The notes below the pieces were generated by a model that did no database searches, was not told the DNA's origin, and worked only from the letters and a program-made list of their open reading frames with translations. A stretch of 64,000 nucleotides of DNA. Source: Octopus sinensis (taxonomy: Eukaryota). Both the position numbers and the translations under genes were made by a program. Positions within the stretch are counted from its first letter, which is position 1. Each line of letters starts with the position of its first letter. The stretch is taken from contig NC_043004.1 in NCBI RefSeq assembly GCF_006345805.1, forward strand, positions 98,208,001 through 98,272,000, given 5' to 3'. Shown here one piece after another: positions 4,641 to 63,308 of this stretch.

Positions 4641-5822
4641 CATGGTGTGATGGGTAAATTGTCGCCATTTTATCGTTTTAATTTTGTGTATGCGCATTAT
4701 CTGTTTTTGATTTTTCGACTGCACAGTATAGTTGGGTCAGTTGGGCACCATCTGTGAGAAAAAAACAAAGCACCATGACGCAATTCATCCTGCCAGAAAT
4801 TTGGAAAAGACATGCTGTATTGTTTGGTGTTCGCACCGGAAGCTCCAATACGAATATTTCTGGGTATCAATCTGAGGACAGTGCAGAGGATTAGACGTTT
4901 CGGAAAGAGTTGGATGAGTCTACTGGTGATTACGAAGGTACTGTAGCAGTTAAGTGAATTTCATTACTGCAAAGTCGACTTCCGATGCATAATTTTCATT
5001 TTTATCGTTTGATTTTTACAGTTGATAAGCGGGGAAAATATATAAATTGAGTATTTGACATTTACTAAAATCTTTTACAATTAAAATTTCTGATTAGAAA
5101 AGAACTCCTGAATTTGTTGATGAGATCGAGGCCATGATGGGAAAAGTCAATCAGGTCCATCGCCAAGGACATGGGAGTGTCTGAGTTTCATATCAGCGAG
5201 TCAATGCATGAATTAATTCGTTATTCCTCATACAAGAGGAGAAAAGGCCAATTTTTATCCGGAGCCATAGGGGACAAGATTCATCACTAGTGATGGCAAT
5301 GTTATGTTTCCATTCAACTACCCACATGACATCAGACTCAACAAGGAGGCCTACATCAAGTGCCTGCAGTAGGTAGTACTGCTTGGGTCGAGAAGGTGGC
5401 TGTTGGAAGACATTATGTCTGGCAACAGGAATCTGAACCATGCTACACAAGCAGGAAAACCCAGTCATGGCTGTCAGACAATTTCTGCGACCACACCACC
5501 TCTAACATCTGGCCACCTAATTACTCAAACTTCAAGCCCCTCGGTTATTATGTGTGGGGAACAATTGAACGAGAGATCAACAAAGCTCCTTTTAAAACTA
5601 AAGATGAACTGAAGGCAAGGATTATAGCAGCATTAACCAACTTAAACAAGGAGACTGTCAGAAGAGTTGCGGGAGATTCCGAAATCGTGTGGAGGCGGTG
5701 GTTGAAGCCAATGGCGATTTTATTGAATACATTTAGTCTGGTAAATATATCTGTTAAAAGGAGATATCAGTGCTATTTTCATTTGCGCGTAATTTAGACG
5801 ACAATTAGTTCACCGCACCCTA
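4641..5822 (+). mobile_element. Defective Tc1/mariner-superfamily DNA transposon, maT (DD37D)-like, with degenerate TIRs
   Basis: Left end TA|CATGGTGTGATGGGTAAATTGTCGCC; right end reverse-complements to TA|TAGGGTGCGGTGAACTAATTGTCGTC; both flanked by TA. ORF 5360-5797 gives WQQESEPCYTSRKTQSWL...WPPNYSNFKPLGYYVWG, matching FQQDSAP.H...WP..SPDLNPLDY..W with 37 residues between the two (mutated) catalytic positions. Frameshifts and stops present. Confidence 0.85.
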
Positions 5823-15339: not shown

Positions 15340-15716
15340 GGAAGCACTCCGTCGGTTACGACGATGAGGGTTCCGGTTGATCTGAATCAACGGAACAGCC
15401 TGCTCGTGAAATTAACGTGTAAGTGGCTGAGCACTCCACAGACACGTGTACGTAGTTCTCGGGGATATTCAGCGTGACACAGAGAGTGACAAGGCCGGCC
15501 CCTTGAAATACAGGTACAACAGAAACAGGAAGTAAGAGTGAGAGAAAGTTGTGGTGAAAGAGTACAGCAGGGATCACCACCATCCCCTGCCGGAGCCTCG
15601 TGGAGCTTTAGGTGTTTTCGCTCAATAAACACACACAACGCCCGGTCTGGGAATCGAAACCGCGAATATCCGACCGCGAGTCCGCTGCCCTAACCACTGG
15701 GCCATTGCGCCTCCAC
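15340..15716 (-). mobile_element. SINE family A (tRNA-derived head), full length
   Basis: Minus strand gtggaggcgcaaTGGCCCAGTGGttagggcagcggactcgcggtc...GTTTCGATTCCcagacc (A and B boxes) to ...accgacggagtgcttcc; TSD-like cacacatatat on both sides. Confidence 0.92.
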
Positions 15717-30538: not shown

Positions 30539-30902
30539 GTGGAGGTGTAATGGCCCAGTGGTTAGGGCAGCGGACTCGCGGTCTCGCGGTTTCGATTCCC
30601 AGACCGAGCGTTGTTTGTGTTTATTGAGCAAAAACACCTAAAGCTCCATGAGGCTCCGGCAGGGGGGTGGGTGGCGACCCCTGTTGTACTCTTTTGCCCC
30701 AACTTTCTCTCACTCTTTCTTCCTGTTTCTTGTCCCCAACTTCCTACGCAACCGCTGAGCCTCGATGCGCATTTATCCATCCGTCGATGCTCTCGGTGTC
30801 GGGGGGTTGACCTGCTTTCACATCTGCGGGTTTTACGAATAGCAAAGGACCACGTTTCGGACTTCTCCCACTGCAAGCTCTGAGACGAAGACCGCTTCGC
30901 TC
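30539..30902 (+). mobile_element. SINE with family A head/core and a second alternative 3' tail
   Basis: Family A head to ~30730, then ...gagcctcgatgcgc...gacgaagaccgcttcgctc; whole unit flanked by aacagaaacaac / aacagcaacaac (TSD-like). Confidence 0.85.
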
Positions 30903-44776: not shown

Positions 44777-46026
44777 TATGTATGTATATATATATAATGA
44801 ATAAAATAAAGTATAATAATATAATCACAACAAAGCCAAACAAGTTTTAGTTTCATAATAGCGTTAGCTAGGGTGGGTGCGGATGAATTTATAACCCCAA
44901 ACGGGGAGTTGAAAAGTGGTTTAAATGGTCTGGAAAATTAGCTTGGATTAATGAGTTTTGCTGGTTCTGTAAATATTATGGTGATGTGATATTGGAAGAG
45001 AGAAAAAGAGAACAAGGATTTAAAGCAATGTATTTATTAAATGCATTCTCTGGCACCAAGTCTCATCGGCTTCTGATCTCGTTTTTGGCGATGTGTCTAC
45101 AAGTAATTGTTATACGTTAACGTTGCTGCTACGGCTGTTGTAGTTGCTGTTGTTTTAGCTTATTCTTGCTTTTAAGGTTTCATTTTGTTTTTTTTTCTTT
45201 CATTTTTATATCACTGTTTGTTCAGTTGTATAGAATTACTTGTGAAAATTTTAATATTTTCCAATATTTTTCATGCATTCACTGTGGATGGGATTAATTA
45301 TTTATTTATTTATTTATGTGTTTATGTACGCTTATATAGATATATATGTGTGTATGAATATATATATATATATATTACTATACATGTGTGAATGCATATA
45401 TATATATATATACACGCATGTATGCATACATATATTTCTGTGTGTGTATATATGTGTGTATATGTTTGCGAGAGTATGAATACATATATTAAAGTAAAAA
45501 ATTCTATGTATCTATGGCATGTAAAAACAAAAATAGAATGAGAGTTAAATAGCTTAACAGCTATAGAGATGTGATTCATATATGGTTTATGTGTATGAGA
45601 ATATATATATATTCGTACTACATATACATGGAGAAACACAACTTAAACATCAATGCTTGTATACATTTATTGGCAAAAGACGTACAATGAAAATACCATG
45701 GAAATACACGTATATAATAAAATTATGTATTACATTATAAGAAGATTCATTCTTCCTCAGGAATTTAAATGAATCACAATCGTATTTAGGTATACATACA
45801 CCCGCACACTCGAACAAACATATATACGTGTATATATATTTATGTCTGTGTGTGTGTGTGTGTGTGGAGAAAGAGAGAGAGAGAAAGAAAGAGAGTGAGA
45901 GAGAGAATGATTCCTGTGTCTCATGTGCGCCTGCTTGTGCAAATAAATATGTGTGTATTCTTGTATGTATATATGCTTATATTTGTATAAATATATATAT
46001 ATGTATGTATATATATATATATACAA

Positions 46027-46105
<79 letters not shown>

Positions 46106-46500
46106 ATACATGTGAATGGGAGAGGTTTGTATAAACTGGATGACTTAATGGTCTCGTATTGACCCAATGCTACATATATGAAATTACTTTTTTGTCTATT
46201 TTAAGCATTCTTCTTCTGTGCAACATTAATACATGTACTTGATCGTCAGATGGGAAACGGACACATCTCTATTTGTAATGTATCAGCATACGCAATCTGA
46301 AATAATTTTTCCAAAAATAAAATCTAACGGTCAAGTCTTACTGCAATTGATTCTTAATTAGAGACTGGAATGCTAGTTTGGAGGCGGAAATATTGTGTTT
46401 CGTTTTATAATATATATATATATATATAATATATATATATATAGATATATATATATATATACGAAAGAAGGTTTGAAAATGCAATTTAAAAGATATTTAT

Positions 46501-46545
46501 TTACTTAACCGGTTTCACTCTTTGGTAAAAGATTGTCAAAAGTAA
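46501..46545 (-). ncRNA. Type I hammerhead motif with U3-A8 variant core, imperfect stem II
   Basis: Minus strand: ttactt TTGACAA tcttt-tacc-aaaga gt GAAA ccgg TT aagtaa; perfect 6-bp stem I, palindromic stem III, GUU triplet; stem II has 2 unpaired nt before GAAA. Confidence 0.6.
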
Positions 46546-46783
46546 CATTGAATATTATGGGTTCAAAAAAGTTTTTTGCATAATTGTCACATTGAATATT
46601 ATGAATTCAAAAATGTTTTTTATACATAATTGTCACATTACATGTATAAATATAGTGTTTGGTAACAGAGATATGTTAAGATATATATATATAGATATAT
46701 ATATAGATATATATATAGATATAGATATAAGATATATATATATATATATATACGCGAGAAAGAAGCAACAAGAATGGATAGGT

Positions 46784-46874
46784 TTTTAGTACGATCGTTT
46801 CATACAAGGACAGGTTTTATTAAAAGTTGCAAAGATTACAGCATATAAACGAGTCCCGTACTCATCAGCTAAAA
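46784..46874 (-). ncRNA. Type I hammerhead ribozyme with long stem II loop
   Basis: Minus strand: ttttag CTGATGA gtacgggac [~45 nt] gtccttgtat GAAA cgatcg TA ctaaaa; 6-bp stem I, ~9-bp stem II with one bulge, palindromic stem III acgatcgt, GUA triplet; canonical core. Confidence 0.85.
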
Positions 46875-47047
46875 TACATGTGAGATCTCTAGACATCCTA
46901 GTGTTTGAGGCTATACTCATGAAGTAATGTAGATAATTAACATAAACAGATTTCTATTGTTAAATCAGTATAGTTTTTTTTGGTGCATCTAAGTTAGGTA
47001 CCATATTCAAGTAAATTCATTTAAATTAACTTGAATCTTTATTGCTC

Positions 47048-47078
<31 letters not shown>

Positions 47079-47494
47079 GTTACAGCCATTTTAACCCCAG
47101 TAGATCTGATCTGTGATAAAACGTCTTCAGCACTTACACATTATTGTCACAGACACACCTCTGGGATATTAACGTTCGCTGAGTTCGACTCAGCATTTTT
47201 AGCAAATGTTGTCTCTTACTTTATCTCAAGGCTGACTAACACTTTGCCTGTAAATTTGGTAGAAGGAAACTGTTCAGATTCCCGTTATATATGTATGTGT
47301 GTGCGCGTACGTGTGTGCATGTGTTGCCTCCGTGCGTGAATGTTTGTAAGCACATATATATATATATATATATATTGTATAGAGGGCATTATTACACATA
47401 AATGCCTCACGCTAAGAGGGACATAATTCATTACAAAATTTAACTAATCGTACCTAATGCAGTTTTCGAAGCAAGATATTTAAAAAATGAATTT

Positions 47495-47559
47495 AGTTCT
47501 ATATCACCTGTGATTTCACACTTAACGCATCAAATATGTCTATGTTCATCAGTAGAACT
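47495..47559 (-). ncRNA. Type I hammerhead ribozyme
   Basis: Minus strand: agttcta CTGATGA acat [20 nt] gtgt GAAA tcac-ag-gtga TA tagaact; perfect 7-bp stem I, stem II acat/gtgt, stem III atcac/gtgat, AUA triplet; canonical core. Confidence 0.85.
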
Positions 47560-47637
47560 GATTCTGAACACATCATAAATAAACGACCAACATACCTGGC
47601 GAATTCATACAGACATCTGCTCCCCTCGGCGAAGCAC

Positions 47638-47685
<48 letters not shown>

Positions 47686-48375
47686 AAATGTGGTATAAGC
47701 AAATTAGGCAGATCAATATATAAAGTATATGAAATACAAAGTGTATATCTGTATACATATAAAAAGGTCACACTTACACAGAGTACAAAAGAGATAAATA
47801 TAGATTGTGATAGAACAGTGTCGTATCAGAATTATTAAGATAAAATTTACTTGGGAATGGATGCATGGCGTTCGATCATATAACACTATAAATAATGTAT
47901 ATGCATACATACATACATACATACATACATACATACATACATACATACATGTGCATACTCACCTGTATAATTCCAAATTTGATTTAATTTGCTTTGCGGG
48001 AGCAACTGTTTTGACGAAGACGCATCTTGTCCTAATTAGTACTAGTTAAATGTTTTATCGTGTCTTTAATTTTTTTCTATATGGTATGATTTAAGTATAT
48101 CATTGTTGAATTGATACATGGTGGTTCTTCTCTAATTTATATATATACATACATACATACATTATTTATCTATATATATATATATCTATATATATGTATG
48201 TATATATACATGCATACATACATGCATATATACATATTTATAGATATATATATATATATGAATATATACTTGTAGTGTTGTGACTGGAGAGAGTGATATT
48301 GCCTTAACGTATTTAACAACCAACCAGTTCATTATCTAGTATTTTGAAGGGAATTAATTTCCTCAGAGTAATAGG

Positions 48376-48471
<96 letters not shown>

Positions 48472-48781
48472 TTTGTGTGTGTGTGTGTGTTTATAATTTC
48501 GCTGAAAGTATCCTTCAACGTAGAACTCAATTTACATTTATTAATATTCACTCAAGTTACATATCTGGCTTAAGGTTTGAGGATTTCCTTTATTATAGAT
48601 GATAAGCCCCATGCCCTAATCTACTAGCCACTCTGCATTTTACTTATGTCACTTTACAACGGATTAAAAATATTTCTCTGCTTGTGTGTGTGCTCCTGTG
48701 AATATTCTCGTGTAAGTTTGCATATCGCTCACAGCTTGGCACCCGTTCTTATTTGACTGGTTTTTATAATTTTGTTGTAGT

Positions 48782-49167
48782 AGTAGGAAGCACTCCGTCG
48801 GTTACGACGATGACGGTTCCGGTTGATCCGAATCAACGGAACAACCTGCTCGGGAAATTAACGTGTAATGGCTGGGCACTCCACAGACACGTGTACCCTT
48901 AACGTAGTTCTCGGGGATATTCAGTGTGACACAGAGAGTGACAAGGCCGGCCCTTTGAAATACAGGTACAACAGAAACAGGAAGTAAGAGTGAGAGAAAG
49001 TTGTGGTGAAAGAGTACAGCAGGGATCACCACCATCCCCTGCCCGAGCCTCGTGGAGTTTTAGGTGTTTTCGCTCAATAAACACTCACAAACGCCCGGTC
49101 TGGGAATCGAAACCGCGATCCTATGACCGCGAGTCCGCTGCCCTAACCACTGGGCCATTGCGCCTCC
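48782..49167 (-). mobile_element. SINE family A, full length with 14-bp TSD
   Basis: TSD aattttgttgtagt at 48768-48781 and 49168-49181; A and B boxes intact. Confidence 0.95.
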
Positions 49168-49899
49168 AATTTTGTTGTAGTTTGATGTTGATTGAAAGTG
49201 GTCTTGAAAACTCTGTGTGTGTGTGTGTATACACACACTGTTATTAAAGCTGCAAAATTTTCACAAAACTGTTACTCAGAGTTTCATGTTCTTGTTCATT
49301 GGACATTTGGGAGTTTAATAAAAGCATATTGTCTACCTTTGGTATTTGTGTACTACTTCTTCCACCTTGTTTTGCATTTATGTGGCAAGCGTAGGTTGGT
49401 AGAACAAGTTCCAGACTTAAATGAATTACATGAGCTAATATGTCTAATTAAACCATAAATGTGGTGTCTCTGCATGTCCTTGTTTAGAAACTGAATGTTA
49501 AAAGCTTAACCGCTTAGGAGTACATTATAGAATGTGTCCTTACACTTTAGTTTATGATTTAACAAATATATAGTTGTTATTTCTTAAGGTTTGAGTAATA
49601 GCGTGGATGAACACTCACCGGCTCGGGATTATATGATGAATGATATTCTAACATCAATGGCTTCACAATGGTTTTCAGCTGATAAGAACTGATCGAAATT
49701 TTGCCTTAGCTTCTCGTCACTACTTGATATATTTTCAACCTGCAGAGCATTATTGCCCCTCTGTATTCCACTCCTTTCAACCTGTACGTCGTACTTATTT
49801 CAGTAGCCTATTATAGATCTTCCCTCATCCTACATTGGTCTCTGGGACTTCTCTGAAATAACTACCTGCACATGATATACATTCCAGTCCTGCCTAACC

Positions 49900-51173: not shown

Positions 51174-51560
51174 GTGGAGGTGCAATGGCCCAGTGGTTAG
51201 GGCAGCGGACTCGCGGTCATAGGATCGCGGTTTCGATTCCCAGACCGGGCGTTGTGAGTGTTTATTGAGCGAAAACACCTAAAGCTCCACGAGGCTCTGG
51301 CAGGGGATGGTGGTGATCCCTGCTGTACTCTTTCACCACAACTTTCTCTCACTCTTACTTCCTGTTTCTGTTGTACCTGTATTTCAAAGGGCCGGCCTTG
51401 TCACTCTCTGTGTCACGCTGAATATCCCCGAGAACTACGTTAAGGGTACACGTAACTGTGGAGTGCTCAGCCACTTACACGTTAATTTCACGAGCAGGCT
51501 GTTCCGTTGATTCGGATCAACCGGAACCCTCGTCGTCGTAACCGACGGAGTGATTCCATC
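51174..51560 (+). mobile_element. SINE family A, full length with 11-bp TSD
   Basis: atctaaataaa at 51161-51171 and 51561-51571 flanks gtggaggtgcaatggccc...gagtgattccatc. Confidence 0.95.
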
Positions 51561-58397: not shown

Positions 58398-59485
58398 AGA
58401 TACTCTTAGGAGATGTGAGGAATGAAGTTTACTTTTCAGCATAATGCTTCTTGCGGTTCACACATTTCTTCCAGCGGTGTTGCAGAGACTGCACCCCGTT
58501 GGTGAAGACGCTTCTATCCGCGTATTCAAAAATGTTATCAACAACAAATATGACGTCATCATCACTGCGAAAGTTTTTCCTAGACTAGTATCTTTTCATG
58601 TTGGGGAGCAGATTGAGCCAAATCAAGAAAATAGTGGCAATGATCAACAATTTCAAATTCCCTGTCACGCACAGGATCCATTGAAACTAAGGACTTCTGT
58701 GCTGAAGTATTGACCTGATGAACCAAGAACCCTGGGTGTTTGGTCTTGATAACCTTTCGTAACTGCCTCATCAAGTTGGCATCACAAAGTAGTCAATAGC
58801 CACAATACCCTTCGCAACCCAAAAAGCTGACGCCGTCGCTTTCCTTGCAGATAAAACGTCCATGGCCTTCTTTGGAGCAGTTGAGGGGACGTGATCCAAC
58901 GGCATGGATTTTCTCCTTGTAACTGGCCAACATCCTGTGACAGAAAACGTTCAAGGAACTCAGATGGATCAGCTTCGAACAATGTGATATTCTCCTGTGA
59001 TATGATCAGCCTGGTACGCGTTTGGTCCTATTTCAGAAACCATGGCATCCATCGAGCAGAAACCTTTGTCTTGTCACAATCATTGAGTAGCATATTCCAA
59101 GTTTCTCACGGGATATGCTAATAGCATTGGCTCTTTGATTTTGGATAGATTACCATATATTATGCATAACCGTATGACTGACAAGATCAATATTTTGCTC
59201 GATAGTGGATGTTGCAGTACGTACACACTATTGGTCACCTTCAAGAGTTTCTTTTACGTTCTTAAATATAGCTGCCCGCTTTTCCACTTTTTGATAAAGT
59301 GGAACCATTATCTCCTAATATAGCAAGAATGTCAGTATTAATGTCCTTAGAGATTTAACACTTTTCAAGAGGAATTGCTACTCAATACTTTTGAAGTCAT
59401 TTTTTAACAGTTAATGCTTGCACGATCCCACAGCTCTAGCATCAATCATTCATAGTCAGCCGATAGACTTTTCAACCCAAATCTG
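58398..59485 (-). mobile_element. Defective mariner (DD34D-type) transposon
   Basis: Minus-strand fragments KVSARWMP (WVP motif), FEADPSEFLERFLSQD, RQLRKVIKTKHPG..VHQVNTSAQKSLVSM...FEIVDH; TIR-like TA|CAGATTTGGGTTGAAAAGTC at 59485; many frameshifts. Confidence 0.85.
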
Positions 59486-59758: not shown

Positions 59759-62700
59759 TATATATATACATATATACATATATGCATGCATGCATGCATG
59801 CATACATACATACGTAACACACACCCAACATACATACGTATATCGATATGCCAATATATGTGTGTGTTTGCATATGTGTATGTATGTGTCTGTGTATGTG
59901 TGTGTTTGTGTTTGTATTGGTATTGATAAATATGTTTATTCATTTTCATACATGTAACACGAATATAAGGTATTCGTGGATGTTATAATGAATAAACATA
60001 CGTCACGTTTTAAAAGGTAGATTATAGGTTTCAGCCTATATTTATATGTATGTGTTTGCCTCGTTCTATGTACAGACATATGGTTGAATAAATAATATCG
60101 TTCTAGCACATTTGTCAGTAATATGTATGAATATGTTTGTGTATATTCAAATGTACATGTTTATACATACACACTTATATACTTCTCGGTCTTTTTATAT
60201 ATTTTCCTTTCCCTGTGTATATGTATATATATGTATATATACATATCTTTATGTATACATATGTACGTGTTTGTGTTTGTGTGCCTACATATACATGCAC
60301 ACACACACACACACACACAAACACACATGTATATATGACCATAAAAGCAGAAGATCAAATGTTTCACCAACATTTCATACTTTCGTTGTACTCAACACCT
60401 GTTTCATTAAGATAACCACCATTAAATATATAATTACATATTTCATTTAAATTAAATTAAAAACTGTGTTATCCAAATCATAAGGTATGCTATGTTAACT
60501 CAAGACACCTGATGAATTATGTTAGCTCTACGTTTAAATCAATTTATTTGAATTTAATTATATATCAGAATTATGTAATTATGCATTTTACGATGTTTAT
60601 ATTAGTGAAGCAGCTGTTGGGAACAATGAAAATATGAACTATACGTGAAATTCTTGCTTTTTTTCTGTTATGGTAAATATATAAGCCGTAAAGCTTGCTT
60701 AGCAGATTACGAATATAACTATACAAGCCGGTCGCAACTAGATTTAATGTAATGTAATAACATAATTCAGTATAAGAACCTGTTGTCGGAATGTGTTGAC
60801 TTGTTGATGTTTATGCATCAGTTTCTCTATATGGGTACAAAAACATAACCATAAGTATGTATATGTGAGGCTATGTGTAGAAGTGTCCATTATTATTACT
60901 GGAAAGTAATTATTTAATTTCTACATTTTTACCAAATTTCTTTTTCTGCACGCACACATGCATGTGTGTGTGTGTCTGTGTGTCTATGTGTGTTGTGAGT
61001 GTGGTGTGTGTGTGTGTGTGCGTGTGCGTGCGTGTTGTGAGTGTGTGTGTGTATGTGTACGCTCGCTATGACAGAAGAACGAGAGTTTATAGACTTTCGT
61101 GTCGAATTGAGCTTAATTTCGTTCAAGATTCCGTAGTTCCAGGCATTCCCTGAGAAGGTGTTTATGTACCCGCGAACTGGCTTGATAAGATGTTCTCAAC
61201 TTTTTCACATAATGTAGAGTTGTTTATGAGATCAAATAACGTTCTTCGTATTTTTTCTTCTTGAAAATACATGGTTCCAATCTAAAATTATTAAACGATT
61301 AATGAAAACCTAAAATTCCACTACTTATCCTTAATCCACAATCCCAAACGTGTAACAAAGAGTATTAGAAACAGGTGAATTTCAATTATAACTTATTCAA
61401 GAATGCTCTTCTCGTGTACAATGTCCTGTAATCTATCAGCTCTGATAAATCAATATATATTTCTATATGTATAAACGAAACGAAAGAAACGCTGATCTCA
61501 ACACATTTGGTTGGAATTATACGTATTGTGTCACAATACTTCAACTCTGCTCCATGCAACTTAAAGTTTAGTAAGGCCATACAAAAAACATCTCTCGTCA
61601 AGAGATCATGTAATATGAAATTAGACAAATTCAAAATGGCTTCTAGATGGTAAACCTCGTTTGGTCAATTTAGCATGTGGTGTTATTGGTTTGGTAACGG
61701 CATAAGCCCTTTGCTCAGAGATCCATGGTCACCGACAGGTTTTCTGTAGGTAACTGTCACTGCTGTGTCTTGTGTGGTTACGGTGTTGTTTATTTAGTGA
61801 CGCCAAATCATTGCCTTTGCCTCTAACATGACAGTGTTGGTGAAGGTTGGTGAAGGGCTAATATCATAGCGCCGATAGCCTTTCTATGGGAAAAATCAGA
61901 TTTAGTAGTGTTAGGTAGGACTACCAATATGAATGGGTTTGTAGTGTTTATGAGCAACAAGGGTTAAGTGTTGTGCTCTTGAGTATGGATCAAGCCAGAG
62001 TAACGTGAACTATTTGGGTTGTCAGGCGGCAGGGGTTGATTTAATCAGCAAATCATACCTTAGTAGAAAGGATAGGTTAGTTCATGTTCCCCGTCGATCG
62101 ATACTCTGGGTGATGCAGTATATGCGTAATTTGACGCAGAGGCAGAGATGGCATTTGGGAACTCCAAGCTAGTACGGAACGTCCCTATGAATGATAGTTC
62201 ATTGAATGTGGGCAAAGTCGTTCTGCAGGGCACGGATGTCAGATAAAACGGGTCAAGGAGGTGGAGTTTTCGTGGAGCGGTTGCATTAGATTGGGGGGCG
62301 GTCACAGAATTGAGCACGTCACAGCTTACATAGACAAAGAGATGGAGAAAATCCCATGTAGAATATGGGCTGCCGTTTCTTTCTTTTTTGTGTGTTGTTT
62401 TGTGGTTGCCGCCAATTCACTGCTGTTACTTTTTCTTTTATCAGCCTCAATAGGAAAGGCAAACATTGACCTCGGTTACTCTGAGGACAGAGCGCAAATT
62501 TTTAGAGCAACTGATGAGTGGAATTCTATCCGGCTCTCTGAAGACCCTTCCAATTTGCTGCCTGTACGAAGGGAATAAAAATAAGAGTGCATTCATTCAA
62601 TTTATTCATTGAATTCTAACAAGGAAAAGATAAAGTGTGTTTTACAAAAGTTTATATTTTGCGCAGACACCTCCGGAAAGCAAATAGGGTCATAAATATT

Positions 62701-62916: not shown

Positions 62917-63308
62917 TTGATGATGGAAGCACTCCGTCGGTTACGACGACGAGGGTTCCGGTTGATCCGAATCAACGGAACAGCCTGCTCGTGAAATTAA
63001 CGTGTAAGTCGCTGAGCACACCACAGACACGTGTACCCTTAACGTAGTTCTCGGGGATATTCAGCGTGACACAGAGAGTGACAAGGCCGGCCCTTTGAAA
63101 TACAGGTACAACAGAAACAGGAAGTAAGAGTGAGAGAAAGTTGTGGTGAACGAGTACAGCAGGGATCACCACCATCCCCTGCCGGAGCCTCGTGGAGCTT
63201 TAGGTGTTTTCGCTCAAAAAACACTCACAACGCCCGGTCTGGGAATCGAAACCGCGATCCTATGACCGCGAGTCCGCTGCCCTAACCACTGGGCCATTGC
63301 GCCTCCAC
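62917..63308 (-). mobile_element. SINE family A, full length with TSD
   Basis: agtttaatact (62906-62916) / agtttagtact (63309-63319) flank the element; (tca)n tail. Confidence 0.94.

Follow-up and report, generated by a model that had tools for sequence, protein, structure and literature searches.

The three hammerhead motifs that lie within 1.1 kb of one another in this Octopus sinensis DNA are, with high probability, borne by three 5'-truncated repeat ends, each of which brought its own hammerhead; these ends likely entered adjacent (TA)n tracts separately, by Penelope-type target-primed reverse transcription, and are likely inactive as lone copies. The cluster, which we place within the whole 64-kb stretch analysed (98,208,001 to 98,272,000 of its contig; hereafter the window), is likely unremarkable transposon debris rather than three ribozymes that work as a unit; as the residue expected of (TA)n-targeting Penelope elements it matters little in itself. 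The modestly interesting part of the locus is the retrozyme-like family F1, whose subfamilies covary cleanly.

Motifs and islands in the window

An earlier note on this DNA had proposed three minus-strand hammerheads with perfect stems I of 6–7 bp. When both strands of the 64-kb window were scanned with a descriptor, exactly three type I motifs emerged, all on the minus strand and at the same coordinates, with stems I that are Watson–Crick throughout (7, 6 and 6 bp in motifs 1, 2 and 3). Hammerhead 1 (47495..47559, minus strand) joins its 7-bp stem I to a canonical core, a near-palindromic 12-nt stem III and an AUA site predicted to be cut after 47502; hammerhead 2 (46784..46874, minus strand) has a 6-bp stem I, a canonical core, a long stem II loop, an 8-nt palindromic stem III and a GUA site, with the predicted cut after 46790. 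Both contain the conserved core (CUGANGA, GAAA, UH) closed by stems I–III. Hammerhead 3 (46501..46545, minus strand) is a variant with a 6-bp stem I and a 6-nt palindromic stem III, in which U3–A8 replaces C3–G8, U·U stands at 10.1–11.1 and a GUU site is predicted to be cut after 46507. The cuts are those the note had anticipated (~47502, ~46790 and ~46507), and its intervals of 712 and 283 nt are arithmetically right.

Canonical cores with stem II occur twice in the window against a shuffle mean of 0.05, a number reached by none of 100 dinucleotide shuffles, whereas the class of motif 3 alone, which carries no stem II requirement, was matched by 72 of 100 shuffles and is not above chance. The type I folds claimed in the note, and the comparison with shuffled sequence that it proposed, therefore come out in favour of motifs 1 and 2 but not of motif 3, whose fold is non-standard. 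A stricter descriptor, drawn up after the motifs had been seen, gave 3 in the window against 0 in 50 shuffles. The hammerhead-model scan that the note had suggested came back empty: Rfam placed no hammerhead at gathering score in the 64-kb window and none at E ≤ 10 in 45500–49500, and its matches in the window are microsatellite-driven miRNA artefacts only.

Each motif lies in a short island. Island 1 (family F1; 47372..47640, minus strand) is a 5'-truncated short-end copy, unit positions 1–274, of a 482-bp non-coding element, with a (TA)n/(CA)n tract (47641..47684) at its 5' junction and a (TA)n tract (47353..47374) at its 3' end. A 274-bp spacer without a hammerhead (47079..47352), ~70 bp of which resemble a degenerate dispersed repeat (76% identity in two fetched loci), separates it from island 2. 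The long, inverted end of island 2 borders on a (TA)n tract (47051..47078). The inverted arm of the island (46955..47050, plus strand) consists of the final 96 nt of the F2 tail, which is ~117 nt long, and ends at that family's long 3' end; the main arm (F2; 46753..46956, minus strand) is the last ~202 nt of a Hydra-like Penelope terminal repeat up to its short 3' end. Island 2 is a minimal two-ended insertion, with 202 nt leading to the short terminus and an inverted 96-nt piece of tail. At its 3' end, island 2 shares an interrupted (TA)n tract (46681..46752) with the 5' junction of island 3 (family F3; 46462..46680, minus strand), the last 219 nt of a Neptune-like Penelope terminal repeat with its short 3' end, which is followed by a further (TA)n tract (46406..46461).

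Outside the core the islands are unrelated in sequence (best cross-hit 20 nt, E 0.024), and (TA)n or (CA)n/(TA)n tracts stand at their borders, both as the note had described; its picture of them as unique segments fails, each being a multicopy repeat genome-wide. The window is rich in microsatellites, and the cluster region holds 7 (TA)n tracts in 1.3 kb against a mean of 1.2, a local density that the insertions themselves may in part have made. Searched by tblastn, the 64-kb window contains no Penelope protein match anywhere.

No host gene was identified, 15 frames picked from 677 having given nothing above cut-off against Pfam. One frame, 62345–62575 (+), runs from a Met start through a long hydrophobic (signal-peptide-like) stretch to a possible splice donor nearby and may be the first exon of a plus-strand gene; it had no homologue among 7 candidates. 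ARAGORN found no tRNA genes in the window. Copies of what we take to be one SINE-like repeat with a tRNA-like head lie at ~15390–15690, 30566–30880, 48780–49150, 51200–51440 and 63042–63282, and frames at 5330–5794 (+) and 58426–59027, presumably decayed relatives of Tc1/mariner transposases, had no Pfam match. Just upstream of island 1, 47832–48167 has high summed contig depth in all four read runs and represents a further high-copy repeat.

Three repeat families

Searched by BLAST against the 2.72-Gb assembly, as the note had advised, every island proved to have many genomic matches, from which families F1, F2 and F3 were defined. The BLAST candidate numbers (2,128, 1,280 and 1,411 for islands 1, 2 and 3) are not taken as copy numbers; exact patterns, counted instead, gave 44 (hammerhead), 59 (3' end) and 288 (tail) for F1, 847 and, for 3' ends, 1,906 for F2, and 549 for F3, with 0 for the reversed-pattern controls of each family. 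All three families have fixed 3' ends followed by (TA)n, and 5' ends that vary between copies.

Upstream extent was below 500 nt in 16 of 30 consecutive F2 copies, with the locus edge reached by 5 of the 30. At fetched locus L091, F2 stands at the 3' end of an 814-aa stop-to-stop RT–endonuclease frame that encodes YRDD, a CxCX5C linker, a region like GIY-YIG, CxxC and CxH; a second frame immediately upstream supplies DKT. Pfam gave no relevant match to this protein; of 7,998 candidates scored against it, 957 are homologues at E ≤ 1e-20, and the best of these carries PF01541. DKT, the CxCX5C linker, CxxC + CxH, the lack of CCHH and the (TA)n target together make F2 a Hydra-like Penelope element, a likeness judged by motifs and not by a tree. 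The same marks, and insertion into (TA)n, are given for the Hydra clade in section 11 of PMC8557442.

In L095, direct F3 repeats ~5.7 kb apart enclose RT and GIY-YIG frames; in L092 the repeats on either side of such frames are inverted. The L092 frames contain DKG, YLDD, CX4CxxC and a GIY-YIG with an internal CxxC; the frame there is broken after the first His of a possible CCHH. Pfam matches of the F3 frames to RVT_1 (E 2.3e-5) and GIY-YIG (E 0.01) both fall below cut-off. We class F3 as a Neptune-like Penelope element, again by motifs in place of a tree and with the qualification that Nematis has the same linker. The note's view of minimal type I hammerheads with palindromic stem III as a Penelope-type mark is borne out by F2 and F3, which sit in the terminal repeats of RT + GIY-YIG elements. 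Its idea that diverse mini-retroelements repeatedly targeted (TA)n survives as regards repeated targeting; only island 1 is non-autonomous, and islands 2 and 3 are truncated ends of protein-coding Penelope elements. F2 and F3 may already be in the supplementary family lists of PMC8557442 and PMC13282606; judged by titles and abstract openings, with incomplete coverage, the literature held no paper on F1, F2 or F3 or on mixed-family hammerhead clusters.

Some features of the tails are common to more than one family. In F2 and F3 tails (for example L033 and L063) a similar short C/A-rich run lies just 3' of the short end, near an RT start site, and recalls an AC-rich start region described in part of PMC11167929. 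The F1 and F2 tails, at 117–128 nt, are well above the usual 30–40.

The status of motif 3 bears on how many hammerhead families there are. It is possible, if rather unlikely, that motif 3 is a decayed or chance look-alike fixed in F3, with no working ribozyme, and that only two families carry hammerheads: the motif departs from consensus in three ways, its class is at chance level in shuffles and no covarying relatives were found. Against this, it occupies the usual place of Penelope hammerheads, being present in both terminal repeats of the full element L095; U3–A8 is described in part of PMC4209133 as a natural covariation in schistosome Penelope elements; and the perfect stem I and palindromic stem III are kept in 549 copies. 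The form found here is fixed in those 549 copies; in 5 others a different letter follows the U. A canonical ancestor was not found: these 5 copies alone differ at position 17, and all of them are still U3–A8. The GUA variant that read contigs seem to show may stem from copies shorter by one base. On the preferred reading, with three hammerhead families, F3 offers a naturally fixed triple-variant core that would be easy to assay.

F1 is of a different kind. It has a 482-bp period and is circularly permuted, with a longest frame of 83 aa in the doubled unit, and its copies are truncated monomers, partial tandems or inverted pairs whose 3' ends fall near unit positions 274 and 402; L098 holds two F1 hammerheads one period apart. 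Past the tail, in 30 position-ordered loci, came (TA)n or a return into the unit, never an ORF. F1 is not meaningfully similar to F2 or F3 (best E 0.23), and its autonomous partner was not found: in 96 screened F1 loci, Penelope coding fragments lie away from the F1 unit. The one-long, one-short ends of F1 are those of Penelope elements and suggest that it was mobilised by Penelope machinery.

The stem covariation check proposed in the note succeeded for F1, with 7 of 22 hammerhead pairs changed on both sides, 97% of cells pairing, none of 500 shuffles reaching this and slid controls far lower; the set comprises 28 distinct variants that are related subfamilies, so that few independent events are involved. 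F2 and F3 copies are too uniform to show any covariation. F1 subfamilies with compensatory stems occur at L304:~1310(-), L310, L314, L318, L321 and L325 and at L247, L250 and L255; in some, stem II is compact, with 4 perfect base pairs and a 4-nt loop, and these are the best candidates for an active ribozyme. The stem III of F1 might fold on itself into a hairpin of 5 bp and a 2-nt loop, a point against the inactivity of lone copies.

At least 8 further hammerhead families are present in the genome, at L005:2810, L028:2930, L033:960, L035:2248, L044:2062, L103:9387, L132:9200, L167:2494, L176:2886, L263:1139, L296:2543 and L301:611. L132 and L296 represent a second U3–A8 family.

Insertion and origin of the cluster

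The best identities of the islands to relatives among fetched loci are 95.2% (island 1), 100% (island 2, several copies) and 98.6% (island 3), and these values suggest three insertions of different age. It is these differences that point to separate insertion, the read contigs containing no empty-site allele. In the set of fetched loci compared, no other locus combines two of the three families, and the idea of a composite mobile block was rejected for that reason. Same-strand stacking of Penelope pieces across (TA)n recurs at L091, L322 and L006. Stacking within one family is also seen at L091:131-6967, where two F2 copies lie head-to-tail and the second follows directly on the terminal (TA)n tract of the first.

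How readily such neighbours would arise can be gauged from the genome at large. Among 92 random 10-kb stretches, 11 contained Penelope protein matches, and strict hammerhead motifs number 5 (at 4 loci) in 920 kb of random genomic DNA, against a mean of 0.05 in shuffles of the first 400 kb; extrapolated, this amounts to ~15,000 strict motifs genome-wide (95% range 5,000–34,000). The flanks of family copies contained 7 other-family motifs in 480 kb versus the 5 (4 loci) in 920 kb of random DNA (P 0.045–0.076), 4 of 11 flank motifs having been dropped before the test as an F1 subfamily; a further 91 kb of flanks added 1 other-family motif. Local clustering of hammerhead families is thus borderline. 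On a rough estimate, same-strand triples within 1.06 kb are expected 0.03 times per genome without clustering and 0.35 times with it: such a triple is rare, yet as a tail event it is expected to surface in a scan of very many windows.

That rarity under independent insertion, the placement of all main arms on one strand and the way in which islands 2 and 3 abut across one interrupted (TA)n tract would fit a single composite insertion, in which one Penelope RT switched templates among three RNAs, or islands 2 and 3 were co-inserted. We consider this quite unlikely: nearest-relative identities differ between the islands, every island stops at its own family's fixed 3' terminus and then gives way to (TA)n, island 2 is a self-contained two-ended insertion, and the unrelated 274-bp spacer intervenes between islands 1 and 2.

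For three separate insertions, the ends of the families point to a Penelope route. By regex classification, inverted pairs have one long and one short end in 18 of 20 cases for F2, 8 of 10 for F3 and 10 of 11 for F1; a tail at one end only in inverted pairs is attributed to Penelope elements in parts of PMC8557442. In vitro work described in portions of PMC11167929 explains the tail pattern by two internal RT start sites with extension of both target strands, and indicates that hammerhead cleavage needs protein and that insertion does not require cleavage. Among 25 distinct F2 copies deviating just 5' of the cut site, we judged by eye that 12 are true junctions and 13 point or indel variants; these 12 ends, starting within 2 nt of the cut site out of roughly 1,000–1,900, compare with 4–8 expected from the truncation rate and the lengths of 30 consecutive F2 copies, which leaves room for a mild excess. 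About 99% of F2 ends read through the ribozyme cut site, and so small a number of ends at that site points to uncleaved RNA as the main template, in agreement with the in vitro finding. One contig of run X20, a run of unsure kind, joins the F2 inverted tail directly to the cut site (window 46791/47020); it likely derives from another copy truncated there.

We propose that a Penelope endonuclease would nick (TA)n and that RT would start at one of two internal sites downstream of the hammerhead, whence every insertion longer than ~100–200 nt would contain one hammerhead. Each insertion would leave (TA)n on both sides and could in turn be targeted again. In this cluster F1 would be the oldest insertion, followed by F3 and then F2, with F1 borrowing a Penelope enzyme. 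The motifs would cleave only as same-family dimers (in tandem transcripts) or with the element's protein, and not with each other; as stem III is a family-specific palindrome, no cleavage between families is predicted.

Predicted activity and known relatives

In a thermodynamic model without tertiary contacts, the isolated motifs form stem I with pair probabilities mostly of 0.7–0.98 and stem III at no more than 0.10; in the context of an island or of the whole cluster, stem I falls to 0.11 or below. Predicted stem III homoduplexes (-11.2, -10.0 and -8.3 kcal/mol) are far more stable than the cross-family duplexes (-0.9 to -3.1), which are so weak that neighbours are predicted to be unable to dimerise with each other. 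Parts of PMC4209133 report no cleavage for the monomer of a metazoan Penelope minimal hammerhead and low activity for dimers, and parts of PMC7229834 report that mussel and coral retrozyme monomers cleave, which speaks against inactivity, as do the intact cores 1 and 2. Contigs of the four read runs (two guessed to be RNA, two of unsure kind) cover all islands, in a form not assignable to this locus; the 4 contig joints listed include neither a 47502–46790 nor a 46790–46507 circle and no contig piece spans the cluster, which is evidence neither for nor against.

The thousands of lone Penelope hammerheads could in principle serve as latent cut sites in host transcripts, switched on in trans by same-family RNA or element protein, and this locus, with three family keys in 1.1 kb, would then be a three-input switch; abundant same-family RNA, for example circles of the 482-nt F1 unit, would pair through the palindromic stem III. 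We hold this to be very unlikely. Very unlikely as well is a co-opted multi-ribozyme cassette cutting a minus-strand host transcript and releasing 712- and 283-nt RNAs or circles. In its favour are the intactness of cores 1 and 2, the stem I folding of the isolated motifs and the common orientation of all three. Against it, young repeat copies would be expected to have intact cores anyway, stem III pairs only weakly between families, the model predicts no stem formation in context, such monomers were inactive in the part of PMC4209133 concerned and protein-dependent in that of PMC11167929, and island 2, identical to its family, bears no sign of long retention here. The RNA or circle release that the note had envisaged is accordingly unlikely for lone copies whose stem III is predicted to need a same-family partner. 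Its alternative, the severing of a host intron, finds no support either, neither a host transcript nor a host gene having been identified.

We return, then, to the reading of the cluster as lone, truncated Penelope-type ends, for which there are close parallels. The hammerheads of metazoan Penelope pseudo-LTRs (Cervera & De la Pena 2014, PMC4209133) are, in the portions of that paper concerned, type I with a tiny palindromic stem III predicted to need a dimer, are placed in terminal repeats, survive mostly as lone copies of truncated elements and in inverted pairs, and include a U3–A8 variant, all as here. By the same account they have stems I of 4–5 bp, against 6–7 bp in the window motifs, and usually G10.1–C11.1, where motifs 1, 2 and 3 have A–U, G·U and U·U; F1 subfamilies do have G–C. 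Motif 3 differs further in combining U3–A8 with U·U and GUU.

With Hydra-clade Penelope-like elements, as portions of Craig et al. 2021 (PMC8557442) describe them, F2 has in common a C-terminal GIY-YIG, DKT, CxCX5C and CxxC + CxH around conserved E and N, together with a canonical hammerhead and the (TA)n target. Those elements are usually below 3 kb with tails of 30–40 nt, whereas F2 exceeds 4.2 kb even when 5'-truncated, with an Asn-rich linker, and has a tail of ~117 nt; the RWK of the clade lies outside the reach of the F2 copy examined, whose 5' part is missing. The Hydra-like F2 is also very young and very abundant in this genome, and its tail is unusually long. F3 matches the Neptune clade, again on the motifs given in parts of PMC8557442, in DKG, a CX2-5CxxC linker before a C-terminal GIY-YIG with internal CxxC, direct terminal repeats, a ~40-nt tail and a microsatellite target, and differs from it in its variant hammerhead core.

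Mechanistically the nearest system is Poseidon of the green anole (Frangieh et al. 2024, PMC11167929), for which passages of that paper describe an AT-rich target, as here, and two internal RT starts defining the tail, with extension of both strands and uncleaved RNA as main template, as we propose here. Poseidon differs in clade from F1, F2 and F3, and the mechanism proposed for these is read from genomic junctions only. F1, finally, resembles animal non-LTR retrozymes (Cervera & de la Pena 2020, PMC7229834; Li, Clavereau & Pollet 2026, preprint 10.64898/2026.07.22.740005), which those sources, in the parts concerned, describe as likewise short, non-coding and low in GC, with one type I hammerhead per unit, in monomers and partial head-to-tail tandems. 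The retrozymes are expressed as monomeric linear and circular RNA; their units measure ~220–400 bp, against 482 bp, and form long arrays, whereas F1 is mostly dispersed, truncated or inverted with at most about two units in a row. What F1 has beyond the retrozymes so described is (TA)n targeting and the Penelope two-start-site signature, with ends 128 nt apart, a signature that lends direct genomic support to the proposal that Penelope machinery mobilises animal retrozymes.
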